Shown: positions 3,335-31,206, numbered from the stretch's first letter. The stretch: DNA of 64,000 nucleotides from an uncultured Gastranaerophilales bacterium (GCA_964017965.1 CAXHNV010000004.1:119771-183770); one strand, 5' to 3'. Numbers and translations are program-made. The notes: generated by a model not told the origin, from the letters alone.

Positions 3335-3399
3335 AGTATTAACTTTTGTAACAAAAATATATTAAGAAGTGTAACAATTTAGTCGAAAAACACCCGTTT

Positions 3400-3417
3400 T
3401 TTGTAAATTTTTGTAAC
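3400..3417 (-). promoter_or_regulatory. HLR1-like direct repeat (minus strand reads GTTACAAA-AA-TTTACAAA)
   Basis: Plus strand tt-TGTAAA-tttt-TGTAAC with 10-bp period. The reverse complement matches every defined position of (G/T)TTACA(T/A)(T/A)-NN-(G/T)TTACA(T/A)(T/A). Additional single TGTAAC boxes lie at 3347 and 3370. Confidence 0.5.
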
Positions 3418-3445: not shown

Positions 3446-3473
3446 TAAAGATTCTCATATAAAGAGCCGTAAA
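3446..3473 (+). promoter_or_regulatory. Sigma-28 (FliA)-type promoter candidate
   Basis: TAAAGATT (3446-3453), a 12-nt spacer, then GCCGTAAA (3466-3473). Enterobacterial consensus is TAAAGTTT-N11-GCCGATAA. It lies 57 nt upstream of the ATG at 3530. Confidence 0.5.
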
Positions 3474-3529: not shown

Positions 3530-6451
3530 ATGGGTATGTCATCATCACAAGCAAGACTGCTAACTTTAACGGCTCGTCTTCATAGCATCGAACATAAGGC
3601 TCAAAAGCTTGAAGCCGATAAGTTGCGCTTGGCTAATGATAGTGACAGAGTGTATGAAACCTACTTAGAGAGACTTGATGCAACTAAACTTCAGTACAGT
3701 GCTTTGACTGCAGACGGTACTATGACTTTCAAAGACGCAACTTTGAATGCTATGGAAAACGGTATTATTGGTAACTGGAACGGTGAAACTTCTAAGAACA
3801 TACTGTTCTTACAAAGTTTAGACGGTAAAGTACTTGTAACACCTGCTGTTGCTGCTAAATACGGTTTGGTTTCATCAGCAGATGAAACTCGTGACCTTGA
3901 TACTTTCGTTCACGATACAACAGGCAAAAACAAGACTGCAAGACCTGTTAACAAACAAGTTCCTGTATATCGTGATGAACAACACATGGTAGACAAAGTT
4001 GTTGATGATACTGACAAAGTACTTGACTTCACAAGAATCACTAACAAAGAAACTAAAGCACCTGTTAACGATGTACAACACACATACAATCCTGTAGCAA
4101 ACATCGATGGCGGTATCGATTACAGCGCATTAGAAGGTTATGCAAAATTCGACCCTTCACATAGCGCTTCAACAGCAGGAGCAACAGCCATAACTTCTTC
4201 TACAACAGAATTAACAGCTGGCGGAACATACACAGTAAATGATGCAGCCGGATTACAAAAATTAGCTCAATTAGCTAACGCAACAAACACTGCCGGTACA
4301 ACAATCATATTGGCTAACGATATCGATATGAGCGGTGTTACAGGCTGGAGCGGTATTTCAAACTTTGCAGGTACTTTTGACGGTAACGGTCACAAAATCA
4401 CTAACCTAACAGGTTCTCAAGGTTTATTCGCATCTACAAGCAATGCAACTATTAAAAACATCGGTTTAGAAAACATCAACATCAATGGTTCTTCTTATGT
4501 TGGTGGTTTAATTGGCAATTCAGGTACAAACACCAATATTACAAATTGTTATACAACAGGTACAGTAAAAGGTACCGGTAGCAATGTTGGTGGCTTGGTT
4601 GGCGCACATAACGGTAACGGACGTTTTGATAATGTATATTCAAGTGCTAATACAACAGGTTCTTCAAACGTTGGTGGCTTAATCGGATATATGCACTGTG
4701 GTCCGGGTTCTGTATTTGATTTATTAAACTGCTATGCAATTGGTAATGTTACCGGTACAACAAATGTTGGCGGATTAGCAGGTGATATGTATTACGATGA
4801 AGATTCTCGTAACACTGATATTACTGATATCGTTAACGCATATTCAGGCGGTAATGTATCAGGTACTGATAAAGTTGGTGGTTTTGTCGGTAATATTCTT
4901 TACTGGGGTGACGGCGGCGACTATTGTAAAATAATCAAATGTCAATCAACAGGTAAAGTAAACGGTACAAGCAATGTAGGTGCTTTTGCAGGTTCAATCA
5001 TTGTTAAATTAGATAGCGGCGCAGGTTGGGAATCTGATGATCAAAAATATGTTAACTTCATCGATTCAGGTTATGCAAACAACACAGGTGCATCATCACC
5101 TTATGGTTGTATCTATGATTCTGATGGTAATGACGTAACTCCTTTGGTTCAATCTACAGGTTCTACCGGTGGTCTTGTTTCATTCCAAATGGCAGGTTCT
5201 ATCCCTTCTATCAACTCTGACGGTTCAGGCGACTTTATGCAAAACATTATCGCAGCTTTAATTAAAGCAGGCGAATACGACCCTTGCGATCCTGAAGTTT
5301 CTGCAGCAGACAAAACAGCTATGGAAACAAAAGTTAAAAACTTCCTTAAATCATTCTCTGATAACGATGCAGACAACGCAAAATTATGGTACTTAAACAC
5401 CGCTATCAACGAATTCATTAACGGTACAGGCTCTGCAAACTTAGGTTCTGCTCTTGCTCAAGATATTAACAACGGTACAAAAACTGCTACAGCTGCGTTC
5501 CAAACAGGTGCAGCTCTAGACGGTAAAGTTGGCAGAGGCGTTGCTTCAGGTAACACTGTTCATTCAGGTACTCACAATATCCAAAAAGGTGAAATAGAAA
5601 TCCCTTCTGTTTCAAATATCGCAACATCATTATTCTATGCACTTAAAAAATCAGGCAACGAAGTTGCACAAGCTGATATCAATACCTGGATAGCTCAATA
5701 CAACACTTCTAATGCAACAGACAAACAATACCTTGCAAACCTAAACAACGATATTCAACAAGGTACTAATATGGCAGCAATCGCAGCATCAATCAATGCA
5801 GGTACTAAATATACAAACAACGCAATGTATGACACTAAAGACTATGATATTAAATTTGCTGCTAACCAAACAATCACTCCTACTTACGATAAGAAAACTA
5901 TTCAAGAATGGGACGGAACTTACGTTCAAGTATTTGATCACTACGATGAAGTATTTGACCACAACGAATACTTCTGGGACACAACTGACCCTGATATTGC
6001 TAATGCAATCGCTATGTATGCAATGATTAAACGCGGTGTAACAGTTGTTACAGATGAACAAGCTGCAAGCTATACATGGTTAGTAAATATGGTTAATGTT
6101 GGTGAAGCTGTATTCACAACTTTCAACCCTGAACAAGTTGCAGCATTTGCTAATATGTCAGAAGACGCTATTAACAATATGTCTGACGCTGAATACGAAG
6201 AATTTATGGGTATCAAAAACACATCAGTTTCAGTAGAAACTTTCATTATGGAAGTATCTGATGAAAAAGATTTGAAAAAAGCTGAAGCTCAATATGAAGC
6301 AGATATGTTGAAAATCAACAAAAAAGACAGATACTACGATACACAATTAGCTGCTATCGAAAATGAAAGAACAGCTATTATCGACGAAACTGAAACATTA
6401 AAAACTGTTATCAAAGATAACGTTGACAGAACATTCAAATTGTTCTCATAA
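3530..6451 (+). CDS. Large protein with conserved helical termini and GLUG-repeat core (flagellin-like architecture; family unknown)
   Basis: 973-aa ORF. N-terminal about 60 aa and C-terminal 58 aa are paralogous to ORF 14985..15905. No signal peptide or TM segment. The core is Gly/Asn/Thr-rich. Confidence 0.65.
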   Translation: MGMSSSQARLLTLTARLHSIEHKAQKLEADKLRLANDSDRVYETYLERLDATKLQYSALTADGTMTFKDATLNAMENGIIGNWNGETSKNILFLQSLDGKVLVTPAVAAKYGLVSSADETRDLDTFVHDTTGKNKTARPVNKQVPVYRDEQHMVDKVVDDTDKVLDFTRITNKETKAPVNDVQHTYNPVANIDGGIDYSALEGYAKFDPSHSASTAGATAITSSTTELTAGGTYTVNDAAGLQKLAQLANATNTAGTTIILANDIDMSGVTGWSGISNFAGTFDGNGHKITNLTGSQGLFASTSNATIKNIGLENININGSSYVGGLIGNSGTNTNITNCYTTGTVKGTGSNVGGLVGAHNGNGRFDNVYSSANTTGSSNVGGLIGYMHCGPGSVFDLLNCYAIGNVTGTTNVGGLAGDMYYDEDSRNTDITDIVNAYSGGNVSGTDKVGGFVGNILYWGDGGDYCKIIKCQSTGKVNGTSNVGAFAGSIIVKLDSGAGWESDDQKYVNFIDSGYANNTGASSPYGCIYDSDGNDVTPLVQSTGSTGGLVSFQMAGSIPSINSDGSGDFMQNIIAALIKAGEYDPCDPEVSAADKTAMETKVKNFLKSFSDNDADNAKLWYLNTAINEFINGTGSANLGSALAQDINNGTKTATAAFQTGAALDGKVGRGVASGNTVHSGTHNIQKGEIEIPSVSNIATSLFYALKKSGNEVAQADINTWIAQYNTSNATDKQYLANLNNDIQQGTNMAAIAASINAGTKYTNNAMYDTKDYDIKFAANQTITPTYDKKTIQEWDGTYVQVFDHYDEVFDHNEYFWDTTDPDIANAIAMYAMIKRGVTVVTDEQAASYTWLVNMVNVGEAVFTTFNPEQVAAFANMSEDAINNMSDAEYEEFMGIKNTSVSVETFIMEVSDEKDLKKAEAQYEADMLKINKKDRYYDTQLAAIENERTAIIDETETLKTVIKDNVDRTFKLFS
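4310..5010 (+). repeat. GLUG-type repeat module (protein level) inside the 973-aa ORF
   Basis: Six spaced copies of the G-G-[LF]-[IVA]-G motif (YVGGLIGN, NVGGLVGA, NVGGLIGY, NVGGLAGD, KVGGFVGN, NVGAFAGS). They are preceded by FAGTFDGNGHKITNL, as in GLUG-motif beta-helical surface proteins. Confidence 0.55.
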
Positions 6452-14858: not shown

Positions 14859-14876
14859 TATGTAAACAAATGTAAC
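14859..14876 (-). promoter_or_regulatory. HLR1-like direct repeat (minus strand reads GTTACATT-TG-TTTACATA)
   Basis: Plus strand ta-TGTAAA-caaa-TGTAAC with 10-bp period. Perfect match to the HLR1 consensus at all defined positions. Lies 17 nt upstream of the sigma-28-like -35 box. Confidence 0.5.
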
Positions 14877-14893: not shown

Positions 14894-14920
14894 TAAAGAT
14901 TTAAAAAAAGCTGCCGTCAT
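14894..14920 (+). promoter_or_regulatory. Sigma-28 (FliA)-type promoter candidate
   Basis: TAAAGATT (14894-14901), an 11-nt spacer, then GCCGTCAT (14913-14920). The -35 octamer is identical to the one at 3446. Lies 65 nt upstream of the ATG at 14985. Confidence 0.55.
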
Positions 14921-14984
14921 GCATGTGGTAAGGAATCACGAAGCAGATTAGGGGCTTCGTACAATAGGAAATAGGAGTAATACT

Positions 14985-15905
14985 ATGGGTTTAGCATCAT
15001 CACAAGCTAGATTACTTAATTTGACTACAAGAATGCACCAAATTGAGTACAAGGCAGCAAAATTAGAAGCTGAAAAGCTTCAAATGGCTAACGAATCACA
15101 ACAAGTTTATGAAACTTATTTAGAAGCGTTAGAAAAAACAAAAGTACAATACAAAGTTTTATCAACAGACGGCTCTGTAACTTATCGAGATATTCAACAT
15201 TATGAAGATTTCTTGAATGCAGGTTACGCACTAGACTTTAAAGGAACAGTTTATGACGGCTCATCCGGATTCAGAGCTGATCAAGGCACATTCACAAACA
15301 GAGGTACTGTAACCCCTACAGCAGAACAAGTAGCTGCAGGCGGCAAATACCAAGGTTTGACAGCCGGCACAACATACAATGTTTACAATGACGGTACAAC
15401 AGATTATTATTCAACAGCGGCTTTAACAGCAGGAGCATCAAAGACTCTTACTACAGTTCCTGCAGGCACAAAAACAATTAACAATGTAGTAGCAGTAACA
15501 TTTGATTATGCACAATTATGTGCTGATGCGTTTGATGCAGATCCTGCAAATCCGCCTGCAAATGTATATGAAGTTGTTACTAACTTGATTAATTCAGGCA
15601 GTGTAACCATTGTTCAAGCAAGAAAAGATGATTCATTCGCTATTGAAGTAGATCAAGACTTCAACATCTTTGAAACAAGTGTTGCAACAAATACAGGTTT
15701 ACAAGAAATACAAGACGCATCAGTCTTGAAGAAAGCTGAAGCTAAGTATGAAGCTGACATGAAACGAATTGATATGAAAGATAGAAAATTCGACCAAGAC
15801 TTAGCTGCTTTAGAAGCTGAACGTAACGCTATTAAACAAGAAATGGAAACATTGAAAACAGTGGCGAAAGAAAACGTAGAACGTACGTTCAAATTATTCA
15901 GTTAA
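14985..15905 (+). CDS. Short paralog of the conserved-termini (flagellin-like architecture) family
   Basis: 306 aa. MGLASSQARLLNLTTRMHQIEYKAAKLEAEKL... and ...ETLKTVAKENVERTFKLFS match the termini of ORF 3530..6451. AGGAG lies 7 nt before the ATG. Confidence 0.65.
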   Translation: MGLASSQARLLNLTTRMHQIEYKAAKLEAEKLQMANESQQVYETYLEALEKTKVQYKVLSTDGSVTYRDIQHYEDFLNAGYALDFKGTVYDGSSGFRADQGTFTNRGTVTPTAEQVAAGGKYQGLTAGTTYNVYNDGTTDYYSTAALTAGASKTLTTVPAGTKTINNVVAVTFDYAQLCADAFDADPANPPANVYEVVTNLINSGSVTIVQARKDDSFAIEVDQDFNIFETSVATNTGLQEIQDASVLKKAEAKYEADMKRIDMKDRKFDQDLAALEAERNAIKQEMETLKTVAKENVERTFKLFS

Positions 15906-17918: not shown

Positions 17919-17936
17919 TTTGTAACAGAATGTAAA
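17919..17936 (-). promoter_or_regulatory. HLR1-like direct repeat (minus strand reads TTTACATT-CT-GTTACAAA)
   Basis: Plus strand tt-TGTAAC-agaa-TGTAAA with 10-bp period. Perfect consensus match. Lies 82 nt upstream of the ATG at 18019. Confidence 0.45.
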
Positions 17937-18018: not shown

Positions 18019-19023
18019 ATGATTCAAAATACACCAAATTACCCTGCGCAACAGCCAGTTGCAAATGTAAATGGACAACAGGTACAACAAAGACCTTCAT
18101 TTGCACCAAGCTATAATGCGGTACAAATCAACTTAGATACACCGACATTAAATGCGCCGCAACCATCATATTATTATGATTATCCACAAGCACAAGGTCA
18201 ACCATATTATCCGCCTGTGCAAACCCAACCACAGCCACAGCCACAGCCTCAAGCACCTGTGAATGTACCTCAGCCACAAGCTGAACAACCACAACAACCA
18301 CAGGCACCTGCAGAAACAGCTCCTGCTCAAGCACCTGCTCCTGCAGAAACAGCTCCGGCAGCTAGCGCAGTGGATATGGAAAAAGTTTTAGCTAACTTGT
18401 CAGATCCTGATTTTGATAAACAAGCAATCCAAATGGAAGAAATTGCTAAAAAAGGTTTAACAAACGAAGCTGATGCAGTTCCTTATGTACAAGAAGACGC
18501 TTTCAAAAAATTATTTGATATAGTCAATGTAGATTCAACAAAATTAGCAGGTCCGACTGAACAACAATTACAATTACGTGAAAAAGTTGCTCAAAACGAT
18601 TTAGCAATCTATAACGCTCAACAAGCAGGCAAAGACCCTTCAACAGTTGAGTTACCAAACAAATTAACTGATGATGAAGTAGCACTTGCTAATACAATCA
18701 CACCGTTAGAACAAGCTGAAAGAAACAAAGAATACGCGTTATTCACAACAGCAGTTCTTCAAAAAACTTATGGCGATGAAATCGAAAAACGTTCAGGTAA
18801 CGTAGTTCCATTAACAGATTTACCTGGTGCTGCAGTAGTGGTTGATGAATTAAAAGAAAACCAAAACCCTGCAATTAGAATGGCAGCAGTAGACGCTTTG
18901 AGATATATTCAACGTCCTGAATACAAAAATGATTTAGCTCAAATCTACACAATCGCTCAATCAGATGCTGATGACAGTGTTGCAGCAGCAGCTACAGATG
19001 CGTTGAAAAGCCTTGAAGCTTAA
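18019..19023 (+). CDS. Pro/Gln-rich protein with C-terminal HEAT-like repeats
   Basis: N-terminal SYNAVQINL motif, then a long P/Q/A tract (QPQPQPQPQAP...). The C-terminus has NPAIRMAAVDALRYI and DDSVAAAATDALKSL, which resemble PBS-lyase-type HEAT repeats. Confidence 0.6.
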   Translation: MIQNTPNYPAQQPVANVNGQQVQQRPSFAPSYNAVQINLDTPTLNAPQPSYYYDYPQAQGQPYYPPVQTQPQPQPQPQAPVNVPQPQAEQPQQPQAPAETAPAQAPAPAETAPAASAVDMEKVLANLSDPDFDKQAIQMEEIAKKGLTNEADAVPYVQEDAFKKLFDIVNVDSTKLAGPTEQQLQLREKVAQNDLAIYNAQQAGKDPSTVELPNKLTDDEVALANTITPLEQAERNKEYALFTTAVLQKTYGDEIEKRSGNVVPLTDLPGAAVVVDELKENQNPAIRMAAVDALRYIQRPEYKNDLAQIYTIAQSDADDSVAAAATDALKSLEA

Positions 19024-19102: not shown

Positions 19103-19777
19103 ATGGATGTAAATAAATTCAAAAATCAGGTGGTTGTATCGGTTCAGGCTATGCCGGATGAGCCTTTGTACAAAGAAGATTGTATGAAAGCTATGATGCA
19201 ATCTGTTATGAACGGGGGAGCAAAAACTTTAAGAGTTGCCGGAGTTCGTGACGTTAAAGTTGCAAAATCACTCGGAGCTAATGTTATAGGGATAACAAAG
19301 CCTGAAAGACTTCCTGAGAATTGGAAGGAAGTTGTTTATATAACCCCAACTACAGTTGAAACGAAGCAACTGATTGAGGCAGGAGCTGATATTATAGCGT
19401 TTGACGGGACATCAAGACCACGTCCAAACGGTTGCAAAATTGAAGATATAATCAAACTGATAAAAGCCAACAATAAACTTGCAATGGCAGATATATCAAC
19501 TCTGGAAGAGGGTATAAACTGTAAGAATTTAGGTGTTGATATCTTATCAACCACTTTATCAGGCTATACAATGGAATCGTTGTCTGATAGTACAGAGCCT
19601 GATTATGAGTTGTTAAAAGACATTGTTAAGGAAACTGACATGCCTGTGATTTTAGAAGGCAGAATTTGGGAGCCTGACGAAGTAACCAAAGCCTTTGACT
19701 TAGGCGCTCACGCCGTTGTAATAGGCTCAGCTATCACAAGACCGCAATTGATAACAAAAAGATTTATAGAAAGATAG
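19103..19777 (+). CDS. nanE: N-acylglucosamine/mannosamine-6-phosphate 2-epimerase
   Basis: VSVQA, FDGTSRPRPNG, ILEGRIWEP and VVIGSAITRP are NanE family segments. A ROK kinase gene is directly downstream. Confidence 0.8.
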   Translation: MDVNKFKNQVVVSVQAMPDEPLYKEDCMKAMMQSVMNGGAKTLRVAGVRDVKVAKSLGANVIGITKPERLPENWKEVVYITPTTVETKQLIEAGADIIAFDGTSRPRPNGCKIEDIIKLIKANNKLAMADISTLEEGINCKNLGVDILSTTLSGYTMESLSDSTEPDYELLKDIVKETDMPVILEGRIWEPDEVTKAFDLGAHAVVIGSAITRPQLITKRFIER

Positions 19778-19784
19778 GTTTATA

Positions 19785-20657
19785 ATGAAAAAAGCGCTTG
19801 CATTCGATATTGGCGGAACAAAGATTTACAGTACAATTATTGATGAAAACGGAAATGTTATATCTGAGATTGCAAAATTTTCTACACCAAAATCTTTAGA
19901 AGAGATTAAGGCTATACTTCAAACTGAAATAGAAAAGCACGAATCTGAGGTTGATACTATTGCAATAGCAACCGCAGGAGCTGTAAATAACGAAAATACA
20001 AGAGTAATAAGTTCTACCGGCAATCTTGTAGAAAACTACAGAACACTTGAATTTCAAAAACTTTCAACAAAACCTGTATTTGTTGAAAACGATGCAAACG
20101 CTGCAGCGTGGGCTGAATATAAAATCGGAGCATCACAAAACTGTCCTAATTCTGTAATGTTAACATTAGGAACCGGTGTTGGCGGCGGAATAATCTTAAA
20201 TAACAGATTGTATAAAGGTAAATCCGGTGCTGCAGGCGAAATGCACTTTAAGATGTACCCTGATAAACGCAGAAAATGCACCTGCGGGAGCTATGATTGT
20301 TTTGAAAGCTACGCATCAGGTACAGGATTAAAAATTACTGCGGAAGAAATCTCTAAGAACCCTGATATAACAACTTATGACGTTATTGAAGGAGTAAATA
20401 AAGGCGATGAAACAATGCAAAGAATCCTTGATACGTGGCAAAACCATATTACAGAAGGTATCATCGGTCTTGCAAATATATTTGACCCTGATTGTTTTGT
20501 TTTATCAGGCTCTATGGCTGAATTTGTCGATATCGAAAAAGTTGAAAACATCGTTAATTCAGAGATTGTGACTACAGCTACAAGTATTCGTAAAGCAAGC
20601 GCAGGTAACTATTCCGGAATGATAGGTGTTTCTTTACTTGCTATAGAAAAGGTTTAA
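19785..20657 (+). CDS. ROK-family sugar kinase (NanK-like)
   Basis: DIGGTK, ENDANAAAWAE, GTGVGGG and the Cys-rich CTCGSYDCFE zinc motif. Confidence 0.8.
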   Translation: MKKALAFDIGGTKIYSTIIDENGNVISEIAKFSTPKSLEEIKAILQTEIEKHESEVDTIAIATAGAVNNENTRVISSTGNLVENYRTLEFQKLSTKPVFVENDANAAAWAEYKIGASQNCPNSVMLTLGTGVGGGIILNNRLYKGKSGAAGEMHFKMYPDKRRKCTCGSYDCFESYASGTGLKITAEEISKNPDITTYDVIEGVNKGDETMQRILDTWQNHITEGIIGLANIFDPDCFVLSGSMAEFVDIEKVENIVNSEIVTTATSIRKASAGNYSGMIGVSLLAIEKV

Positions 20658-20662
20658 ATATA

Positions 20663-20872
20663 ATGGGTAAATCAAAAAGACGAATACTTGCTAAAGGTGT
20701 ACACCAACAACTTTCTACTCTTACAAGAGAAGAAGCTGTTAAATACGTAGTAAAAAATGAAGCTATTGAAGATATCACTAATATCATCACCCTTTTTGGT
20801 TTAAAACCCGAAGAACTGCTTGAAGCAGGAATGACTTATGAGCAGATAAAAAAACTTGAAGGTTCGTTTTAA
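20663..20872 (+). CDS. Hypothetical small protein
   Basis: 69-aa ORF tightly packed between neighbours. No recognisable motif. Confidence 0.3.
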   Translation: MGKSKRRILAKGVHQQLSTLTREEAVKYVVKNEAIEDITNIITLFGLKPEELLEAGMTYEQIKKLEGSF

Positions 20873-21697
20873 ATGGTTTCAAAGCTGTTATTCTGGCTAA
20901 GATGCTCAAGAGCATATACCTTACCTATAACGTTTTTTTCGTGGCTTGTAGCTTTTTCTTACGGACTAAAACATAACGGCAATGTCTGTTTTGGGTTGTT
21001 AGCGCTTTTGGGAATTATGATTTGTCATTTAGCGACAAACCTGTTTGATGATTATATAGATTTTAAAACACTAAAAGTATCTGCTAATATTCGTAAAGAT
21101 AAATGTGATTATTTATTAGAAAAATTAGCTACTACAAAAGAAGTTCTTAGAACCGTTTGTATCTATTTGTTTATTGCAAGTATAATCGGTATTTTTTTTG
21201 TATGTGAACGAGGGATTAAGACACTTTTATTTATTACGGCAGGCGGAACAATTGTTCTTTTGTATCCGTTTTTTTCAAAGCTGAGAATGTCTGAAGTCGC
21301 AGTTGCATTAGCTTACGGACCAATATTATTTGGCGGCACATATTTCGTTATGACAGGCGATTTAAGCCTAAACAGCATACTCATATCTATCCCGTCAACA
21401 ATATTTACACTCAATATAATCTATACTGATACTCTTATAGATTACGACTCGGATAAATCAGCAGGTAAAAAAACATTTGTCGGATTATTCAGCAAACCAA
21501 TCGCAAAAAAACTGCAAACATTCCTATTAATAATCGGATATATGGCAGCTTTCAAGGTAACTACTTTTACCCTTTTGACAATACCTTTAGCTATTCAAAT
21601 AATAAAAGGTTCCGGAGGATTTATGCAAACAATGCACCGGACAATAAATTTGACAATTTGTGTATCAAGCCTGTTAGCACTTGCAATATTGTTATGA
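20873..21697 (+). CDS. UbiA-family prenyltransferase (MenA-like)
   Basis: NLFDDYIDF (NxxxDxxxD) and a second Asp-rich motif YTDTLIDYDSD, with about 8 TM spans. Confidence 0.7.
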   Translation: MVSKLLFWLRCSRAYTLPITFFSWLVAFSYGLKHNGNVCFGLLALLGIMICHLATNLFDDYIDFKTLKVSANIRKDKCDYLLEKLATTKEVLRTVCIYLFIASIIGIFFVCERGIKTLLFITAGGTIVLLYPFFSKLRMSEVAVALAYGPILFGGTYFVMTGDLSLNSILISIPSTIFTLNIIYTDTLIDYDSDKSAGKKTFVGLFSKPIAKKLQTFLLIIGYMAAFKVTTFTLLTIPLAIQIIKGSGGFMQTMHRTINLTICVSSLLALAILL

Positions 21698-24264: not shown

Positions 24265-24285
24265 TGTAAATGTAACAATTGTAAC
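24265..24285 (-). promoter_or_regulatory. Cluster of three TGTAA[AC] boxes (irregular spacing)
   Basis: TGTAAA-TGTAAC-aat-TGTAAC, about 100 nt upstream of ORF 24382. The 13-mer TTGTAACGAATTT is identical to 3411-3423. Confidence 0.3.
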
Positions 24286-24381: not shown

Positions 24382-25251
24382 ATGAGTTTTGGTGAAATGT
24401 CAGTTACAGGAGCAAGTGCAGTAAACGGAGCGTATTCAGCTAACAGTACAACACGTAGTGTAAGTAGCGAAGAAGCTATGTTTGATTTTTCTGATAAAGG
24501 TGGTAACACTTCAGAAATAGCAAGCGACGGAGGAATGATTACAAGAAACCCTGATGGTTCTATAAAGAGTGTTACCTATGTAAATGAAGACGGAAGTGTT
24601 TATTCTAAGTCTGTATTTAACAGTAATACAGAAACAGTATATTATACAAATGATGAAGGCAAGTTGGCACCATTTGCAGAACACGTATATGATCCGGCAA
24701 CACAGACCGGAACAGCTACACCTTATGTAGACGGGAAGCTTGATACAAGTTATACATTGAAGTATCCAATGGATTATGATGAATCAGGCAAGCCATATTT
24801 AATAGATAAACCAATGCTGCCTGATGAACCGAAAGCAGCTGAACAGCCTTCAGCAACGCCTGCAGCACCAAAAGCATCTACGGTAACACCTTCAGAAGCT
24901 AACGCTAAGTGGGCAAATGTAAAATTTGAACAAGGTATCGGCGGCGGATATGGCAAAGAATATGACGGTTCCGGCAGGATTGCTAATAGAGTTTATACAG
25001 ATAGCGCAGGCAATGTGACTATGTATACAGAATATAGTTATAGACCTGACGGTAGCATAGATAAGACAAGAACTTATTCATTACATAACGGTGAATTCAA
25101 GTTATCTGATGAAGTTACTTATTCAGAAGATAATAAGACTGCCGTAGGACAAGGTTATTCCGTATATAGCGGTGAACCACATCCGGGTAAGATAAATTAT
25201 ACGACTGAAAAAGTCGGTAATGAACTACAACTGGTATTTAAAGCAGATTAG
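24382..25251 (+). CDS. Hypothetical protein with Tyr/Asp/Gly/Thr-rich repeats
   Basis: AGGAGGA RBS. Repeated segments like TYVNEDGSVYSKSVF / YYTNDEGK / YTDSAGNVTMYTEYSYRPDGS and a central Pro/Ala linker. No signal peptide. Confidence 0.4.
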   Translation: MSFGEMSVTGASAVNGAYSANSTTRSVSSEEAMFDFSDKGGNTSEIASDGGMITRNPDGSIKSVTYVNEDGSVYSKSVFNSNTETVYYTNDEGKLAPFAEHVYDPATQTGTATPYVDGKLDTSYTLKYPMDYDESGKPYLIDKPMLPDEPKAAEQPSATPAAPKASTVTPSEANAKWANVKFEQGIGGGYGKEYDGSGRIANRVYTDSAGNVTMYTEYSYRPDGSIDKTRTYSLHNGEFKLSDEVTYSEDNKTAVGQGYSVYSGEPHPGKINYTTEKVGNELQLVFKAD

Positions 25252-25306: not shown

Positions 25307-25383
<77 letters not shown>

Positions 25384-25594: not shown

Positions 25595-26416
25595 ATGAGA
25601 ATAGAGTACTTAAAGTATGAAAGGGATAAAGTGGATATTGTAACCTTAAAACTATTGCTTATCTTTGCACCAGGTTTAATAGGAATGACAATTTATAATC
25701 ATTTGGTATGCAAAGCAAAACAGTCTTTTGAGTATTTCATTGTTTACTCTATACTGTTTGGTATTGTTAGTTACGCAAGTGTAAATATCCTTGTCAAAGC
25801 AATAAATCTAATAATTAAGTATTTTCCTAAAAATCCTATACCTGTATTTGATTTTAGTCAGTTTTTTAATATTATAAAAACTTCTCAACCAGATTTTTCA
25901 GTATCACTTTTGCACTTTTGGTTAACTTGTTTGACTGCGGTCTTATTATCGCTATTTTTTACTGTTTTTATCAACAAGTGTTGGTTGTATAAGGTATTAA
26001 ATTTTCTCAAAATAAGTAACCGAGATAGTGCTTTTCAAGTCTGGAATAAAATTTTTGGTGATGAAACTAACGATAATTGGGTCATGGTTATTGATTATAA
26101 AAATAATAAAATCTACGATGGACGTTTGTATCATCATTCTGATTATTCAGAAGAAAACGAGATATTTCTTAAAGGTGTAATTATTTACGATTTGTCTACC
26201 AAAAAAGAACTAGAACGCTGTAACGGTTTATATATATCACGAGCAGACAAAGAAACTACATTAATTGTTCCGAAAGCAGATGCTTCGGATGATTTTTTAG
26301 ATAGGGAATGTTATTATTCAGATGAAAATGACATAGAAGAAATTAAGATAGAAGAAGAAAAAAGAGGAGTATTCACAACATGGCTGAAAAAGATAAAAAA
26401 GATTTTCAAAGTTTAA
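25595..26416 (+). CDS. Hypothetical multi-pass membrane protein with soluble acidic C-terminal domain
   Basis: About 4 hydrophobic spans in the first 130 aa, then WVMVIDYKNNKIYDGRLYHHS...IFLKGVIIYD (a small beta-rich domain) and an acidic tail. Very AT-rich codon usage. Confidence 0.45.
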   Translation: MRIEYLKYERDKVDIVTLKLLLIFAPGLIGMTIYNHLVCKAKQSFEYFIVYSILFGIVSYASVNILVKAINLIIKYFPKNPIPVFDFSQFFNIIKTSQPDFSVSLLHFWLTCLTAVLLSLFFTVFINKCWLYKVLNFLKISNRDSAFQVWNKIFGDETNDNWVMVIDYKNNKIYDGRLYHHSDYSEENEIFLKGVIIYDLSTKKELERCNGLYISRADKETTLIVPKADASDDFLDRECYYSDENDIEEIKIEEEKRGVFTTWLKKIKKIFKV

Positions 26417-26961: not shown

Positions 26962-28380
26962 TTATTTCTGCTTTAAGTATTCTAGTTCATATTCACAAAA
27001 TTCTGTTGGATTTGTCTTTTTTATTTCAAATGTTACAGACATAGTGTTGCCAATATAATTTTTATCAAGAATAAATTTTACAGTATATAATCCTTTTTCA
27101 AAAGAAAAGTCTTTTGTTTCGGCTATTTTAGAAAGATACTTATCTTTTAAATTTTCACAAAAAATTTTATTATACAAGCTACTACAATATTTTGAGAATA
27201 TCTTTAATTCAATTTTTATATCGTCCGCAAATTGTATGAAATCATATAACATATATGATTGTGGATATTGCTGATTACCTATAACACAATAGTATCTATT
27301 GTTATCTTCAGTATTATAAGAAAGTGCCTGATAATTACCACAGCCCTCAGAATAATTTGCATATTTATATGAGGCTATTGGAAAACCTAATTCAGCCATA
27401 AAACCTAATGATAAATCTAAAGCAATATCTGTATCAGTTTGAGGAGAATCTAAATGTTTATATCTTTGTTTAAATTCTTCAACCATTTTTTCTATATTTA
27501 AATCGACATCATAACCGCCATATGCACTAAGAAAAAAATGTTGCCATAATTTAAGCTGTCCAATATTTACTCCGCATAATTTAAAAGTTTTATAAGCGAA
27601 TTTAAATGAAGAAATGTGTTTATGTAGATTCTCTCGTAATACAGACATGCTTGTTAATATAGTTTCGTATTTAGCATAAACATAAATAACAAAACATATT
27701 GGATATAAAAATAAAGTATACATTATTGGTAACAATAATATTTGCAATGAATGAATATTGAACAATTGCATAGGCTCTTTAAATGCCCAAATGCTACTGT
27801 GTAAAATTATAAAAGCACCTATAAACATTTGAATTCCGTTTAAAAGTTGCTTAGCCTCTTTTACATTTTGAGTTTCTTCTTTAAAATATTCCATATAGGT
27901 ACTTGTAGTACATAATAATGTTACAAAAGCTACTAATACAATTTCAACAAAAATATTAAAATCATGAAAATTGACAAAAAATTCTAAAAAATAAATAGCT
28001 GAAAAATAACCTACAATATTATCTTTATAAATCTTATGAAAATTATCTGTACCAATTGCTTTGCCAAATAATAGTAATCCACCGACAATAGAAAATATAG
28101 TATCTTTTAATAGTGTATTGTCCCAAACATTACACTTAAACATTAAATAAGTTACTGCTATTAAATACATAGTTGGAATTAAAAAGAGTATAGTTAATTT
28201 GGAAAAAAATATCAACTTTAAAACCCGTAGTAGAGCTTTTCTTACATCAAGACTTTTTATCAAACAATATGACAAAAAAGCAATAATTAAAAATGCAATT
28301 GCATACTCCCTATTAGAAATTGAAGTAAAAAATATTTCCATAAAGTGATTATTACAGAAATGATTTATTTTCTCAAGCAT
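26962..28380 (-). CDS. Hypothetical multi-pass membrane protein (472 aa) with soluble C-terminal domain
   Basis: About 7 hydrophobic spans in the N-terminal 250 aa and a Tyr/Cys-containing soluble C-terminal half. No family recognised. Very AT-rich. Confidence 0.45.
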   Translation of the reverse strand: MLEKINHFCNNHFMEIFFTSISNREYAIAFLIIAFLSYCLIKSLDVRKALLRVLKLIFFSKLTILFLIPTMYLIAVTYLMFKCNVWDNTLLKDTIFSIVGGLLLFGKAIGTDNFHKIYKDNIVGYFSAIYFLEFFVNFHDFNIFVEIVLVAFVTLLCTTSTYMEYFKEETQNVKEAKQLLNGIQMFIGAFIILHSSIWAFKEPMQLFNIHSLQILLLPIMYTLFLYPICFVIYVYAKYETILTSMSVLRENLHKHISSFKFAYKTFKLCGVNIGQLKLWQHFFLSAYGGYDVDLNIEKMVEEFKQRYKHLDSPQTDTDIALDLSLGFMAELGFPIASYKYANYSEGCGNYQALSYNTEDNNRYYCVIGNQQYPQSYMLYDFIQFADDIKIELKIFSKYCSSLYNKIFCENLKDKYLSKIAETKDFSFEKGLYTVKFILDKNYIGNTMSVTFEIKKTNPTEFCEYELEYLKQK

Positions 28381-28591
28381 TGAAATTATATCTGTTTTTA
28401 GGTCATACTTTCTTGTAAGTAAAACGCCACAAATCTGCTTATTCTTAATCCCGTTATAAAAAAACTGATGTTCTTTTCCGGCAAAATGTTCTCCTAAGCT
28501 AACAGAAAAATAGCCGACATGGCTAATTGACCTTACCCCAAGTTTAATAGTTATATATTGTTAAGGGATATTATAAGGACAGAGTAGAGCT

Positions 28592-28906
28592 ATGAGCGAA
28601 AAAGAATCTTTTGTAATCATTATTGAGAAAAATACCATTACTAAATTACTTAAAATAATCTGCCCCGAAGATAATACGCTGATGAAGAATGAAAATCTTT
28701 CACCTAACGAACACATCCCACTCACAGAACGAGAACGCGAAATACTTAAACTAATAACACAAGGTAAAAATAATAACGAAATAGCGACCGCCCTTGAACT
28801 AAACATACATACAATTAAGTCTGATGTGTGTTCAATTCTTCAAAAACTCGAAGTCACAGACAGAGTTCAAGCTGCAGTCAAAGCCGTTAAACAAAACCTC
28901 GTCTAA
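28592..28906 (+). CDS. LuxR/GerE-type helix-turn-helix protein (solo, short N-terminus)
   Basis: LTEREREILKLITQGKNNNEIATALELNIHTIKSDVCSILQKLEVTDRVQAAV is a canonical GerE HTH. Only about 45 aa precede it. Confidence 0.75.
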   Translation: MSEKESFVIIIEKNTITKLLKIICPEDNTLMKNENLSPNEHIPLTEREREILKLITQGKNNNEIATALELNIHTIKSDVCSILQKLEVTDRVQAAVKAVKQNLV

Positions 28907-28945
28907 ACTGGACGAATTCTCTAAATTTTTGTATAATTATCATAA

Positions 28946-30697
28946 ATGAAAGGATACAAAATGAGAGATTATGAATTAAACCTATCTATAGAAGAATTAG
29001 AAAAACGTACTCACAAAGATTATTTAGTAACAAAAACAATGCTTAAAGAGGATTCACCTGAATACACCGCACTTGCAGAAGGTGATAAAAAAGCACTTAA
29101 ACACCTCGTTAAAGCTGCTTACATCCTCGAAAAAATAAATAAACAAATCGATAACCCACATAACCTACCGTTCGAAGAATACCTAAACAAAGAAATCTCT
29201 AACGGTAACAAACAAGCAGAATTGACAAAAATCCTCTACGACGCCCAAAAAGGTCTCTGCGCAATCGATAGAGAATCAAACATCATAGAACTTGCAAAAG
29301 GTGTTCACGCAACATTAGGTAAAGGCGCATACCCTGAAGATTTGGGCAAAGAAGAGTTTCAACAAATTGTTCTAAAAATGCTAAAATCAGGCAAAATAGA
29401 AGAACTTCGTACAATGCTTAACCAACGTTCAGTCGTTGAAAGACAAGGTGACGAACTCGTCGCAATCGACTATATTGATAAGTTTAAAGAAGATTTTGCT
29501 CTTATGGCAGATGAACTTGAACAAGCTGCAAAAGTTTCTACAAACAAAGATTTTAACGAATATCTTGAACTGCAAGCAAAAGCTCTAAGAACTCCTGATC
29601 CGATGCTTGATGCCTACGCAGATAAAAAATGGGCAACACTTCAAGATACACCATTGGAATTCACCATAACACGTGAAAACTACTCGGATGAACTAACAGA
29701 AAGTGTTATAGAAAACGAAGAGCTAAAAGCCCTATTAGAACAACACAAAATAACACCAATAGGAAAAGATTTCTTAGGCGGAAGAGTCGGAATAGTAAAC
29801 AAAAAAGGAACCGAAGCTATCCTAAAAGTTAAAGACTTTCTTCCTCTCATGGCAGACAATATGCCGTTCAAAGACGAGTACACCCAAAACATCTCTCCTG
29901 ATAAGGATTCTAAGCAAACAATGGTCGATGTTGACCTTGTAACCGTATCGGGTGATGTCGGAGAGTTCCGCGCAGGTATAACCCTGGCAGAAAATCTTCC
30001 AAACGATGACAAGTTATCATTAACAATTGGCGGCGGTCGTAGAAACGTATACCACAGACAAATACGTCTAATAACAAGCGAAGATTCGAAAAAGAAGCTT
30101 CAAGAACGTCTTGACGCTATCCTAAACAAAGACCAGCACAAATACTACAACGATGAAGCAGACCACTGGTTCACAATAGGTCACGAAAATGCCCACTCTC
30201 TTGGACCAAACTCAGGAACAGAGGCGCTCGGCAAATACAAATCAATCATAGAAGAAAACAAAGCAGACATAACATCACTTGCTATGCTTGATGTGCTTGA
30301 GCAAAACGGAATGTACACAAAAGAAGAAAAAGAACAAATAATTGTAACCTACGCAGCAGATAACATGCTTAAATCTAAACCAACTCTAAGTCAAGCTCAC
30401 AGAGTTCGTTCAGTAATGCAAAACTATTATTTCCTTAAAGAAGGCGCAATAGAAATCTCTGCTGACGGGGTTCTAACAGTTAACATTGAAAAGATGATTC
30501 CGACAGCTCAAAAAATGCTTGAAGAAATCATTCGAATCCAAATCGACGGAGACTTTAACAAAGGCGAAAAATACGTCCTCGAAAACTTCCAATGGACACC
30601 GGAAATGGATTTAATAGCAGAAAAAATAAAAAAAGTCTCAAAATCCCTCAACGGTAAAGTTGAAGAACCTCTGGCAACTGTTCTTCTAAATTCATAA
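28946..30697 (+). CDS. Zinc metallopeptidase, DPP III (M49)-like
   Basis: HENAH (HExxH) followed about 27 residues later by EENKAD, as in bacterial M49-like enzymes. An alternative start at 28961 (MRDYELN) has a better RBS. Confidence 0.55.
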   Translation: MKGYKMRDYELNLSIEELEKRTHKDYLVTKTMLKEDSPEYTALAEGDKKALKHLVKAAYILEKINKQIDNPHNLPFEEYLNKEISNGNKQAELTKILYDAQKGLCAIDRESNIIELAKGVHATLGKGAYPEDLGKEEFQQIVLKMLKSGKIEELRTMLNQRSVVERQGDELVAIDYIDKFKEDFALMADELEQAAKVSTNKDFNEYLELQAKALRTPDPMLDAYADKKWATLQDTPLEFTITRENYSDELTESVIENEELKALLEQHKITPIGKDFLGGRVGIVNKKGTEAILKVKDFLPLMADNMPFKDEYTQNISPDKDSKQTMVDVDLVTVSGDVGEFRAGITLAENLPNDDKLSLTIGGGRRNVYHRQIRLITSEDSKKKLQERLDAILNKDQHKYYNDEADHWFTIGHENAHSLGPNSGTEALGKYKSIIEENKADITSLAMLDVLEQNGMYTKEEKEQIIVTYAADNMLKSKPTLSQAHRVRSVMQNYYFLKEGAIEISADGVLTVNIEKMIPTAQKMLEEIIRIQIDGDFNKGEKYVLENFQWTPEMDLIAEKIKKVSKSLNGKVEEPLATVLLNS

Positions 30698-30723
30698 AAC
30701 TATAAAAAATAACACAAACAAAA

Positions 30724-30757
30724 ACGTCTGATATACGCTATATCAGGCGTTTTTATT
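30724..30757 (+). terminator. Rho-independent terminator
   Basis: 12-bp stem ACGTCTGATATA/TATATCAGGCGT with a 3-nt loop, followed by TTTTATTGTTTT. Confidence 0.85.
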
Positions 30758-30891
30758 GTTTTGTAAAGAAGTGTTAAGAATATAAAACAAAAAAGGCAAT
30801 TTTTAAGAAGCGATATACTTTATATATACATAAGAGATAATTAAATCTCGAAGGATAATTAGGATAATTAGAATATTAGAGGATATAGGAT

Positions 30892-31095
30892 ATGGCATTA
30901 GGACAATTCGGTAGTTTAACTTACAACACAAACAAAAACACTTACGGCTACTCAATCTCAAATGATTTCGGAATGAATACTATTTTAAAGACTTTGGGTA
31001 AAGCTAATTTCACAAATCCAATTGCTAACAACGCACCGCAAGAAAATGCTTTAGAAAACTTAGCAGAAGACGGTCACGTTGAAGTATTAAGCTAA
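30892..31095 (+). CDS. Hypothetical small protein (67 aa)
   Basis: Stand-alone ORF between two terminators. Upstream is TGTAAAGAAGTGTTAAG (a degenerate TGTAA box pair). No motif recognised. Confidence 0.3.
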   Translation: MALGQFGSLTYNTNKNTYGYSISNDFGMNTILKTLGKANFTNPIANNAPQENALENLAEDGHVEVLS

Positions 31096-31170
31096 TTTTT
31101 GGATTACTACGTCTATTTTAGGGGTTAATGTGCACCATAATGCTATTATCTATTCTAATTATCAAAATAT

Positions 31171-31194
31171 GAGCCGTAAAGGCTCTTTTTTTTT
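31171..31194. terminator. Terminator hairpin between convergent genes
   Basis: GAGCC-GTAAA-GGCTC followed by T9 on the plus strand. Confidence 0.65.
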
Positions 31195-31206
31195 GCCCCA
31201 AAAAGA

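Follow-up and report, generated by a model that had tools for sequence, protein, structure and literature searches.

A Gastranaerophilales-specific protein family with flagellin-like architecture and sigma-28-type promoters: a candidate substrate of the flagellar type III apparatus

Two paralogous genes and their family

The window analysed here, a stretch of 64,000 nucleotides (64 kb) from an uncultured Gastranaerophilales bacterium, carries two related genes on the plus strand, ORF A (3530..6451, 973 aa), a long member of its protein family, and ORF B (14985..15905, 306 aa), a short one. Both reading frames are present as the first-pass annotation, made from the sequence alone, had described them, and the terminal identity that it had counted by hand was reproduced exactly, with 39 of the first 60 and 40 of the last 58 residues identical and the final seven (RTFKLFS) the same in both translations. 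BLASTP of ORF A against ORF B returned an N-terminal block (43/69 identities, E 4e-27), a C-terminal block (49/86 identities, E 2e-25) and no significant match between them, in agreement with the claim that the cores cannot be aligned. The absence of a signal peptide or transmembrane segment, which had also been claimed, is borne out by maximal Kyte-Doolittle 19-residue means of 1.37 for ORF A and 0.89 for ORF B. No third copy was detected in the window when its six-frame translation was searched with phmmer. Over the first 56 codons, 15 are identical, 23 differ synonymously and 18 non-synonymously; with synonymous differences this abundant, recent gene conversion was ruled out as the source of the terminal identity, and purifying selection therefore maintains the protein sequence of the termini.

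In the AlphaFold models (pLDDT 88.3 for ORF A and 81.7 for ORF B), both proteins have one helix of 50-60 residues at each end, a base domain, and a core inserted into the latter. The N-terminal and C-terminal helices span aa 2-49 (nt 3533-3676) and aa 912-972 (nt 6263-6445) in ORF A, and aa 2-52 (nt 14988-15140) and aa 245-305 (nt 15717-15899) in ORF B. The family alignment (A1) indicated that the part common to both proteins exceeds the two helices and includes this small conserved alpha/beta base domain, represented in ORF B by TDGSVTY..D..AGYAL after the N helix and by ITNLINSG.VTIV and ETSV.TNTGLQEV before the C helix, and that the insertion point of the variable core lies within it. In ORF B the base domain carries a small beta-rich insert, and in ORF A the core comprises long beta-ribbons (aa 136-186 and 784-815), a GLUG / M26_N-type beta-helix (aa 258-530, nt 4301-5119; Pfam Glug and Peptidase_M26_N, Foldseek) and a helical domain (aa 568-757). 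The beta-helix resembles the N-terminal GLUG right-handed beta-helix of the M26 IgA1-specific metalloproteases and also matches the beta-helix domain of Bacteroides ovatus BACOVA_03286, and Foldseek aligned the ORF A core with IgA1-protease beta-helix domains (3n6z, E 8e-9; 7uvk; 6xja). However, the M26 enzymes have a catalytic domain with an HExxH motif, whereas ORF A contains the non-catalytic module alone, with no HExxH motif and no Pfam match to the catalytic M26 domain. Among 55 long family members, Pfam found Glug in 17, Peptidase_M26_N in 11, calpain-like Peptidase_C2 in 2 and Flagellin_IN repeats in one (P0244, E 3e-11). Judged by these matches, the core of ORF A and the other cores appear to be extracellular-type domains.

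The family comprises 2,652 representative clusters with lengths of 225-1,289 aa, and it was found only in Candidatus Gastranaerophilales; the 707 homologues of ORF B, all from this order, are unnamed or annotated as "hypothetical". Searches outward from divergent members (P0265, 526-aa class) led only to more unnamed Gastranaerophilales subfamilies. The count of copies and core diversity that the first-pass annotation had proposed gave up to 11 paralogues per genome in 24 species-level MAGs, and within one genome the termini are 80-89% identical while about 90% of core pairs are unrelated. Some 55 residues at the N terminus and 60 at the C terminus hardly vary between paralogues or within the order, and in some 345 distinct termini the conserved residues occupy every face of both helices. 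A flagellar export signal is typically short and disordered, with little sequence conservation, and would not require conserved residues on every face of the two helices.

The suggestion that this is an undescribed family, and the profile and structure searches proposed along with it, led to the same result, as no known family or fold was found for the termini. Pfam and NCBIfam scans of the termini of ORF A and ORF B gave merely sub-threshold coiled-coil noise, a profile search of PDB sequences with the family termini retrieved designed coiled coils alone (E > 0.07), and the literature search found no paper containing the terminal motifs. With the whole ORF B model, Foldseek returned nothing below E 0.29 from PDB and BFVD, in a search to which long-helix models are poorly suited. 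A weak Foldseek match to IpaD (E 5.2) was not significant. A phage or plasmid origin was rejected, since tblastn gave no match in 50,697 phage and 72,556 plasmid records, BFVD gave no fold match, and the neighbours of ORF A and ORF B are housekeeping genes.

Promoters and leaders of the family genes

The main new result concerns the promoter of the family genes, whose motif is nearly exclusive to them. ORF A is preceded on the plus strand by a sigma-28/FliA-type promoter at 3446..3473, with the -35 element TAAAGATT (3446-3453), a 12-nt spacer and the -10 element GCCGTAAA (3466-3473), and ORF B by one at 14894..14920, with the same -35 element TAAAGATT (14894-14901), an 11-nt spacer and the -10 element GCCGTCAT (14913-14920). 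These two are the only motif matches in the 64-kb window, where 0.32 would be expected by chance. Across the family, (C/T)TAAAG(T/A)TT-N11/12-TGCCGT(A/C)A was present in 65 of 67 non-redundant upstream regions; its median distance to the ATG is 62 nt. In the 1.15 Mb of loci, or 2.3 Mb when both strands are counted, a looser form of the motif matched 128 times. Of these matches, 78 fell in the 300 nt preceding a family ORF, accounting for 78 of the 95 such ORFs, and only 7 lay upstream of non-family ORFs, of which there were about 1,100. Variants of this promoter precede the genes of the divergent 526-aa paralogue class and that of P0244, the member with Flagellin_IN repeats. Both elements and their spacing agree with the published sigma-28 consensus, TCTAAAG and GCCGATAA (PMC12784957), and from this motif we infer that the family genes may be transcribed by a FliA-type sigma factor. 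The sole group-3 sigma factor found, at L077, scored best as cyanobacterial SigF and not as FliA, with scores below the curated cut-offs, and its gene adjoins a prepilin-peptidase-like gene (judged by eye from the N-terminal sequence only) and not flagellar genes.

A direct-repeat box lies upstream of both promoters on the same strand, at 3402..3417 for ORF A (TGTAAATTTTTGTAAC, TGTAAA-N4-TGTAAC, 28 nt upstream of the -35 element) and at 14861..14876 for ORF B (TGTAAACAAATGTAAC, 17 nt upstream). Such a box was found 5' of the -35 element in 42 of the 67 non-redundant family promoters, phased at 17-18 or 27-28 nt, and it may be a binding site for an activator.

The 5' leader of ORF B (14921..14984, plus strand) is rich in GGA and GGG and contains a hairpin at 14938-14960 (stem ACGAAGC/GCUUCGU, loop AGAUUAGGG), followed by GUACAAUAGGAAAU and an AGGAG Shine-Dalgarno sequence. 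When each of 16 distinct short-type leaders was folded separately, the hairpin recurred with stems that differed in sequence and stayed complementary, UAGG was unpaired in 11 of the 16, and the mean z-score was -2.7; these counts rest on per-sequence folding because RNAalifold, run on a MAFFT alignment in which the stems were misaligned, gave no consensus structure. Family leaders contain 2.6 WGGR motifs per 70 nt, versus 0.9 for other genes. Rfam gave no leader match in the 64-kb window, only two tRNAs. Neither csrA nor fliW turned up in the 1.15 Mb of sampled loci, a sample that is uninformative for csrA.

Comparison with flagellin and with the flagellar apparatus of the order

The first-pass annotation had proposed a flagellin-like filament or scaffold family distinct from FliC. 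The distinction held, since hhalign of the family against E. coli FliC gave a probability of 0.1-0.5%. Against 39 flagellar and chemotaxis proteins including FliC, the family profile (A1) reached at most 2.4%, with single-sequence targets that limit sensitivity, and probabilities for E. coli FlgB, FlgC, FlgE, FlgF, FlgG, FlgK, FlgL, FliD and FliE were at most 0.2% each. Neither Flagellin_N (PF00669) nor Flagellin_C (PF00700) matched ORF A or ORF B (Pfam at E <= 1; NCBIfam), and no Pfam match to Flg_bb_rod or Flg_bbr_C was obtained. Because these profile tests failed, ORF A, ORF B and their relatives are, as far as profiles can tell, not members of the flagellin family, and because there is no similarity to flagellin, hook, rod, junction or cap proteins, homology lends no support to a flagellin-like reading. 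Of the proposal itself, the architecture stands, with conserved termini of one helix each and unrelated cores; assembly into a filament and export itself are conjectural.

As an analogy, the comparison with flagellin (FliC/Hag) is nevertheless much stronger than the sequence of the two genes alone had shown, owing to the promoters, the Flagellin_IN repeats of P0244 and the type III apparatus of the host. Like flagellins, the family proteins combine conserved helical termini with a hypervariable, outward-facing middle that ranges from tiny to very large, occur as several paralogues per genome, have no signal peptide, and are encoded by genes that each have a sigma-28-type promoter and a GGA-rich leader; one of them bears the Flagellin_IN repeats. 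Unlike flagellins, they have no similarity to the flagellin sequence or profiles (Pfam E > 1; hhalign at most 0.5%), a single helix at each terminus with a small alpha/beta base domain in place of the D0 and D1 helical bundles, and cysteines, and they occur in genomes reported to have no hook, cap, junction, ring or motor genes. The 7 cysteines of ORF A would be unusual in a flagellin, though not prohibitive. We describe the family, on present comparisons, as probably Gastranaerophilales-specific and flagellin-like without detectable relatedness to flagellin.

The window also contains no flagellar, pilus or secretion gene, as had been noted before for flagellar genes; this is not counter-evidence, because in these genomes the members of the family, like the flagellar genes, are dispersed. 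Within the 20-kb flanks of family genes, FliI, FlhA, FliH and FliF were found in 4 of the 24 MAGs. FliI lies 337 bp upstream of a family gene on the same strand at L081, and FlhA-FliH lies 360 bp from one at L028. Flagellar genes make up about 8 kb of the 1.15 Mb of flanks, so that such closeness is not above chance; as it is not enriched, we do not use proximity as evidence of linkage. Among 742 ORFs around 95 family genes, conserved-neighbour analysis found local synteny blocks and no universal partner, nor was a conserved small chaperone gene found at these loci. A recurrent 70-aa "neighbour" was rejected as an artefact, being an ORF antisense to the N-terminal coding region.

The flagellar genes of the order have been surveyed elsewhere, and by these accounts the export-gate and ATPase genes are widely conserved in it. 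Four draft genomes, taken here as those of Gastranaerophilales, are listed as containing FlgB/C/F/G, FlhA/B and FliE/I/J/P/R and as having no FliC/D, FlgD/E/H/I/K/L, FliG/M/N or MotAB (Soo et al. 2014). According to a 2026 preprint, about 25% of Gastranaerophilales genomes have complete flagellar sets, and the remaining genomes keep flagellar genes "postulated to be involved in extracellular secretion". The reported absence of the L and P rings from the reduced systems makes it puzzling how a structure built on the rod could cross the outer membrane, and the family proteins may accordingly have a periplasmic destination.

Precedents exist for parts of such a system. Reduced flagellar basal bodies serve Buchnera aphidicola as protein exporters, retaining gate, ATPase and rod without filament or motor as in the reduced Gastranaerophilales, and Campylobacter secretes non-flagellin proteins (FlaC, Cia and Fed) through its flagellum. 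However, we know of no dedicated, expanded and regulated substrate family tied to any of these exporters, whereas here there is a candidate family of thousands of members. In the proteolytic "flagellinolysins" of Clostridium and the giant flagellins of marine gamma-proteobacteria, a functional domain in the variable region is displayed on a polymer, to which the GLUG / M26_N and Peptidase_C2 inserts of the family are comparable; those proteins, in contrast, are bona fide Flagellin_N/C proteins on motile flagella. EspA of EPEC, Bsp22 and the needle-tip proteins form hairpins of N- and C-terminal helices that polymerise on a needle or rod with no hook, and they share with the proposed family subunit the coiled-coil hairpin and type III export without a cleavable signal. 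They differ in having no sequence similarity to the family, in being single-copy, in lacking large inserted domains, and in belonging to injectisomes, whereas the system here would be of the flagellar type.

Possible functions of the family

We tentatively favour, with a confidence just short of an even balance, the reading that ORF A and ORF B are late substrates of the flagellar type III apparatus that act like flagellin; that they form filaments is less certain. A group-3 sigma factor (FliA/SigD/SigF-like) would transcribe each gene from the observed promoter motif, the identity of the factor being our inference. The GGA-rich leader, with its hairpin in the short paralogues, might then be subject to CsrA/FliW-type post-transcriptional control as in flagellins, which is a weak suggestion. 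The protein, having no Sec or Tat signal, would be exported unfolded by the flagellar apparatus (FlhA/FlhB/FliPQR gate, FliH/I/J ATPase, FliF ring and FliE-FlgBCFG rod), which would be kept even in the roughly 75% of genomes without flagellin, hook, cap, rings and motor. The near-invariant N and C helices could pair as a coiled coil, and paralogues could dock on the rod tip or co-polymerise from it, with the polymorphic core in the base domain displayed outward, in ORF A as an IgA1-protease-type GLUG beta-helix on beta-ribbon stalks. Polymerisation is the least certain part of this mechanism. Such a mechanism would yield either an appendage without a motile role, serving adhesion or interaction with the host, or a group of secreted proteins; in both cases the surface domains would be interchangeable.

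The promoter, the missing signal peptide and the export machine would count equally for a different use of the same apparatus, in which the proteins are soluble secreted or surface-anchored monomers, that is, polymorphic effectors or adhesins whose termini serve as export signal, chaperone site or anchor, comparable to the Campylobacter proteins FlaC, Cia and Fed. Their cores are indeed typical of binding or enzymatic modules (GLUG beta-helix, calpain-like peptidase), and the hook, junction and cap genes, whose products normally nucleate filament growth, are absent in reduced genomes. We nevertheless consider monomers unlikely, as the roughly 55 N-terminal and 60 C-terminal residues held nearly invariant on all helical faces fit subunit packing, and the conserved base domain suggests a fixed structural role. 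It seems improbable that the family is unrelated to type III export and forms a cytoplasmic or periplasmic coiled-coil scaffold, intermediate-filament-like or belonging to the envelope, under a SigF/FliA-like sigma factor. The long terminal helices prone to coiled-coil formation, the lack of a detectable export signal or conserved operon partner, the reported absence of L and P rings, and the SigF-like character and prepilin-peptidase-like neighbour of the sole group-3 sigma factor at L077 would all suit such a scaffold, but the cores are known otherwise from extracellular proteins (IgA1-protease beta-helix with GLUG; Flagellin_IN), and extreme core diversity among 6-11 paralogues per genome is the pattern of surface-exposed proteins under selection by host or phage. 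To our knowledge, there is also no precedent for a sigma-28-type promoter on a cytoskeletal gene family.

We regard it as very improbable that these are true flagellins or hook-associated proteins that have diverged extremely, which would form the motility filament where flagella are present, in about a quarter of the order, and be relics in the rest. Architecture, regulation and copy number are all flagellin-like, and P0244 has Flagellin_IN repeats; however, every profile comparison fails, each terminus has a single helix of about 55 residues instead of the ND0-ND1 and CD1-CD0 pairs of flagellin, and strong purifying selection on the termini argues against relics. Moreover, canonical flagellins that can be aligned to E. 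coli FliC, including the TLR5 region, are present in MEL.A1, MEL.B1, MEL.B2 and ACD20 (Di Rienzi et al. 2013), and the motility filament therefore already has its subunit.

Starting again from the favoured reading of flagellin-like late substrates, we also speculate on a bolder scenario, which as a whole we would call somewhat unlikely. The Gastranaerophilales flagellum might have become an organelle for type III secretion and display that no longer serves motility and consists of gate, ATPase and rod, with a sigma-28-type late regulon and new, non-homologous subunits replacing hook and flagellin, so that a filament of mix-and-match adhesin or enzyme domains would face the host gut. Alongside the flagellar filament and the injectisome needle or EspA filament, it would add a third, independent kind to the filaments built by type III secretion systems.

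Humans and other animals widely harbour Gastranaerophilales as gut symbionts; no cultured member is known to us, and their partial flagellar gene sets have been unexplained since 2013-2014. The family of ORF A and ORF B provides a concrete candidate, with thousands of genes, for a secreted or assembled product, and it is the best candidate for the cargo or filament subunit of the stripped-down flagellar secretion machine of gut Melainabacteria; its cores resemble binding or protease modules that face the host. If the favoured reading is true, the family would show how a flagellum can acquire a new use through a newly invented subunit, and a protein family without detectable relatives would join the short list of polymers assembled by type III systems. 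The main variable surface antigens of a gut lineage would then be identified, which would matter for immune recognition, as these proteins would not be flagellins of the TLR5 type. Even without export, the family and its promoter would represent a large, previously invisible sigma-28-type regulon in non-photosynthetic cyanobacteria.

Constant ends and variable cores

Two intact plus-strand genes, ORF A at 3530..6451 (973 aa) and ORF B at 14985..15905 (306 aa), encode proteins that are similar only at their ends: BLASTP found 43/69 identical residues in the N-terminal block (E 4e-27) and 49/86 in the C-terminal one (E 2e-25). The hand counts of the first-pass annotation were exact on recount (39/60 N-terminal and 40/58 C-terminal identities, the final seven residues, RTFKLFS, being identical), and neither protein contains a hydrophobic segment capable of being the signal peptide or transmembrane segment that it had reported missing. 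The observation is therefore real. The first 56 codons differ by 23 synonymous and 18 non-synonymous codons, which indicates that the terminal identity is upheld by protein-level selection; recent recombination as its source is excluded by the 23 synonymous differences. No third copy was found in the 64-kb window, which is low-GC (about 35%) chromosomal DNA of a diderm bacterium with housekeeping genes throughout, including pheT, dnaB, leuS, lpxC/lpxD, yidC and metK.

Both proteins are already on record in NCBI, and all named homologues of ORF B belong to Candidatus Gastranaerophilales, gut cyanobacteria that do not photosynthesise and that also go by the name of Melainabacteria or Vampirovibrionia. 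A word-indexed search with ORF B returned 707 relatives, and an exhaustive profile search (E <= 1e-3) gave 2,652 clusters, counted by their representatives at 50% identity; the best 150 of these span 134 to 1,289 aa, with fragments at the short end. Source records label the members 'hypothetical protein', no Pfam domain covers the termini of any member, and the family is absent from the phage and plasmid collections searched. Scanning one genome per GTDB species with strict peptide patterns gave 78 family loci; the 24 MAGs that hold them are without exception Gastranaerophilales, Melainabacteria or unnamed gut/rumen bins, and the copy number in one MAG reaches 11. Same-genome paralogues share 80-89% identity across the terminal 56 and 60 residues, and core similarity is undetectable in about 90% of such pairs. 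This is a very large, undescribed and, on these searches, order-specific family. Beside its hypervariable members there are conserved paralogue classes of ~380 aa (with a proline-rich linker), ~434 aa, ~526 aa (with far more divergent termini, MGMAASQARYLALTARK…TFKTFSGG) and ~602 aa; loci of conserved classes include L038:7453-9033 and L040:7539-9119, and member P0265 also represents such a class. These classes are apparently single-copy and, unlike the hypervariable members, conserved over their full length. They could be specialised, for instance as a junction, a cap or an adaptor.

In an alignment of 43 short members, the N-terminal segment MG[LM][SA]SSQARLLxLTxRMHxIEYKAxKLEAxKLQMANES..VYE.Y..AL..TK.Q. 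and the C-terminal segment LKKAEAKYEADMKKID.KDRKYD.DLAALE.ERNAIK.EMETLKTVAKDNVERTFKLFS enclose a strand-rich conserved motif, TDGS.TY.D....F...GYAL, followed by a variable insert, and the conserved motifs ITNLINSG.VTIV and ETSV.TNTGLQEV. The AlphaFold2 model of ORF B built on this alignment (pLDDT 81.7) has a helix (2-52), a beta-rich middle and a second helix (245-305). That of ORF A, built on 55 long members (pLDDT 88.3), comprises a helix (2-49), a base domain, a beta-helix (258-530), a helical domain (568-757) and a final helix (912-972), and two ~30-residue beta-ribbons (136-186 and 784-815) are predicted to form a stalk. In Foldseek, the beta-helix matched 3n6z (E 8e-9, TM 0.57), and also 7uvk and 6xja, and groups with the non-catalytic N-terminal beta-helix of IgA1 proteases, a placement that agrees with the Pfam matches to Glug and Peptidase_M26_N. 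This non-catalytic part is all that the ORF A core has in common with the M26 IgA1 proteases, and ORF A contains no catalytic HExxH motif. Among the cores of the 55 long members, Pfam recognised Glug in 17, Peptidase_M26_N in 11, calpain-like Peptidase_C2 in 2 and Flagellin_IN in one, P0244 (E 3e-11, several IN-type repeats). The architecture is modular and flagellin-like, and the cores are of extracellular type. Across about 345 distinct termini, conserved residues extend beyond the heptad a/d positions and include the invariant runs S6-Q7-A8-R9-L10-L11, K-A-E-A and R-T-F-K. This points to terminal helices that would engage several simultaneous interfaces, and not to a simple two-stranded coiled coil or a loose secretion signal.

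Promoters and leaders of the family genes

A common element, (C/T)TAAAG(T/A)TT, 11 or 12 nt and TGCCGT(A/C)A(T), was found upstream of 65/67 non-redundant family genes, with its 3' end at a median of 62 nt 5' of the ATG. We take it to have the shape of a sigma-28/FliA/SigD promoter. In E. coli, promoters of this class read TAAAGTTT-N11-GCCGATAA, and in B. subtilis they read TAAA-N15-GCCGATAT. According to a structural paper of 2026 (PMC12784957), the sigma-28 -10 consensus is GCCGATAA and the -35 of P. aeruginosa fliC is TCTAAAG. The family -10 departs from the consensus past GCCG, with TAA or TCA and not ATAA. Variants are TTAAGATA-N11-GCCGATTT in the ~526-aa class and CTAAAGAT-N12-TACGTAAA in P0244. 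A loose pattern matched 128 times in 1.15 Mb, both strands counted; 78 of these matches lie within 300 nt upstream of 78/95 family ORFs, the remaining ORFs being mostly cut by contig ends or given mis-called starts, and only 7 lie upstream of any of ~1,100 non-family ORFs, two or three of these fitting the strict consensus. The window has exactly two matches to TAAAG-N12-15-GCCGT (3446-3470 and 14894-14917), each directly 5' of a family gene, against a chance expectation of 0.32 (two matches were reached in 3/100 shuffles). These predicted sigma-28-type promoters are almost exclusive to the family.

Two non-family genes have near-consensus promoters of this type: L081:705-1286 (promoter L081:627-650) encodes a 193-aa product whose N terminus resembles a signal peptide and which contains a zincin motif, HESFH, and L054:7473-7973 (-) encodes a 166-aa glutamine-rich protein without a family match, which could be FlgM-like or another regulon member.

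A direct-repeat box, TGTAAA-N4-TGTAAC, stands 5' of the -35 in 42/67 family genes and is phased at 17-18 or 27-28 nt, which is what an activator site predicts. TGTAAC-type boxes also occur at 17921-17936 and 24271-24285 (+), as well as at 3343-3380, and precede two ORFs without a Pfam match, 18019..19023 (334 aa) and 24382..25251 (289 aa), from which the TAAAG/GCCGT promoter is absent; the box may be the target of a regulator with a wider range.

Family leaders are rich in WGGR (2.6 vs 0.9 per 70 nt). Those of the short paralogues, ORF B among them, carry a hairpin with AGAUUAGGG in the loop (mean folding z-score -2.7), whose stems vary among orthologues yet stay complementary (CGAAGC, GCGGA, CUGAAC, ACAGAU, GUCAGC, CCGGC and others). 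It is followed 3' by (G)UACAAGGAA, which we consider to resemble the CsrA SELEX consensus RUACARGGAUGU, and then by the Shine-Dalgarno sequence. This recalls the CsrA/FliW control of flagellin mRNAs, but goes no further than a likeness, since the sampled DNA yielded no csrA gene.

Other genes around the loci

Just after a tRNA-Met (25307..25383), the block at 26962-33954 contains large ORFs without a Pfam match (472 aa on the minus, 583 aa on the plus and 915 aa on the minus strand) and adjoins genes for a DUF6338 protein (25595..26416) and a small regulator of LuxR/GerE type (28592..28906). The block may be an island that is specific to the lineage or was acquired. The window also encodes a matrixin-type (Peptidase_M10) metalloprotease (35970-36767, +), an uncommon type for bacteria that may act on the host, and a GAF-GGDEF-HD-GYP protein for c-di-GMP synthesis and degradation (41130-43031, -); c-di-GMP commonly governs the switch between motility or secretion and adhesion. 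A NanE-ROK-UbiA block is a recurrent landmark (window 19103-21697, L056:10503-16441, L089:7023-12178). Elsewhere UbiA has a family member after it, and in L056 FliI lies at the opposite end of the block, whereas in the window ORF B and dnaB precede it, which indicates rearrangements around family genes. An unannotated gene trio in divergent orientation (L004:7158-9696 (-), also in L005, L018 and L029) encodes a 222-aa coiled-coil protein with a CPxC motif, a 486-aa membrane protein and a 138-aa product; it adjoins the 244-aa paralogue in these four loci and was not found beside other paralogues.

Flagellar genes and proposed export of the family proteins

As the first-pass annotation had remarked, the 64-kb window contains no flagellar gene. 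When E. coli K-12 flagellar proteins were compared with all 1,222 ORFs in the family loci and their flanks, and matches were confirmed by NCBIfam, FliI was found in three MAGs (in L081 it shares its strand with a family gene and lies 337 bp upstream of it), FlhA and FliH in L028, 360 bp from a family gene, and FliF in L010. Flagellar-gene density in the family flanks was not above chance, so these matches show presence in the genomes and not linkage. A group-3 sigma factor in L077 matched cyanobacterial SigF best, then SigB/F/G and FliA/WhiG, all below curated cut-offs.

At L077:8060-9762 this SigF/FliA-like gene is followed by a PilD-like prepilin peptidase gene (by eye, from its N-terminal sequence), and a family gene with its own promoter starts at 10001. 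SigF controls pili and secretion in photosynthetic cyanobacteria, which the arrangement recalls by analogy. A 355-aa protein without a Pfam or NCBIfam match occupies the fliG position, after fliF in L010 (9594-10661, -) and before fliH-flhA in L028 (3886-4344, -). Its C-terminal part (…VLKLLDQRRVNAVLKQFPPEEAEAIQRYV…) looks like the N-terminal, FliF-binding domain of FliG alone, and such a shortened FliG would be in keeping with a basal body that has no motor and serves secretion only.

Di Rienzi et al. 2013 described some Melainabacteria with canonical flagellins and a full flagellar gene set. A 2026 preprint reports complete sets in about 25% of genomes and postulates a role in extracellular secretion for the genes kept by the others. 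According to Soo et al. 2014 and Utami et al. 2018, most Gastranaerophilales have partial sets only. In a supplementary table of the former, four genome columns, which on our assignment are Gastranaerophilales drafts, list FlgB, C, F, G, FlhA, FlhB, FliE, I, J, P and R as present and FlgD, E, H, I, K, L, FliC, D, G, M, N, S and MotA/B as absent. On this reported content, the order retains the export gate, ATPase and rod without a known late substrate.

We tentatively favor the explanation that the family proteins are exported through the retained flagellar apparatus and assembled, as late substrates acting like flagellin. A FliA-like sigma factor would read the family promoters, the proteins would exit the cytoplasm via the flagellar export apparatus, the terminal helices would mediate docking or polymerisation on the rod, and the cores would be displayed. 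The absence of a Sec or Tat signal and the occurrence of flagellar T3SS genes in the same MAGs support this, and one weakness is that the L and P rings are missing from the gene content in that table, which leaves the route across the outer membrane unexplained. The same two observations would suit export as monomers, a reading that we regard as unlikely, since terminal conservation points to several interfaces. A non-exported scaffold, which would also lack a signal, is less probable still, given the extracellular type of the cores. The first-pass annotation had proposed an undescribed filament or scaffold family rather than FliC. Truly diverged motility flagellins are highly improbable: the family resembles flagellin in its architecture and regulation, in its copy number and in how it diversifies, and has functional domains inserted as in enzymatic or giant flagellins, but the sequence and profile comparisons place it neither among flagellins nor among other axial proteins.

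Functionally, the nearest precedents are the pared-down flagellar exporters of endosymbionts, proteins other than flagellin that leave through flagella and the EspA-type coiled-coil filaments of injectisomes, none of which is related to the family in sequence. The flagellin analogy is on firmer ground than the first-pass annotation could know; the family is new, and its putative functional kind, the flagellin-like type III late substrate, is already known. With it, the decade-old puzzle of why Gastranaerophilales have partial flagellar gene sets can be put to a direct test.
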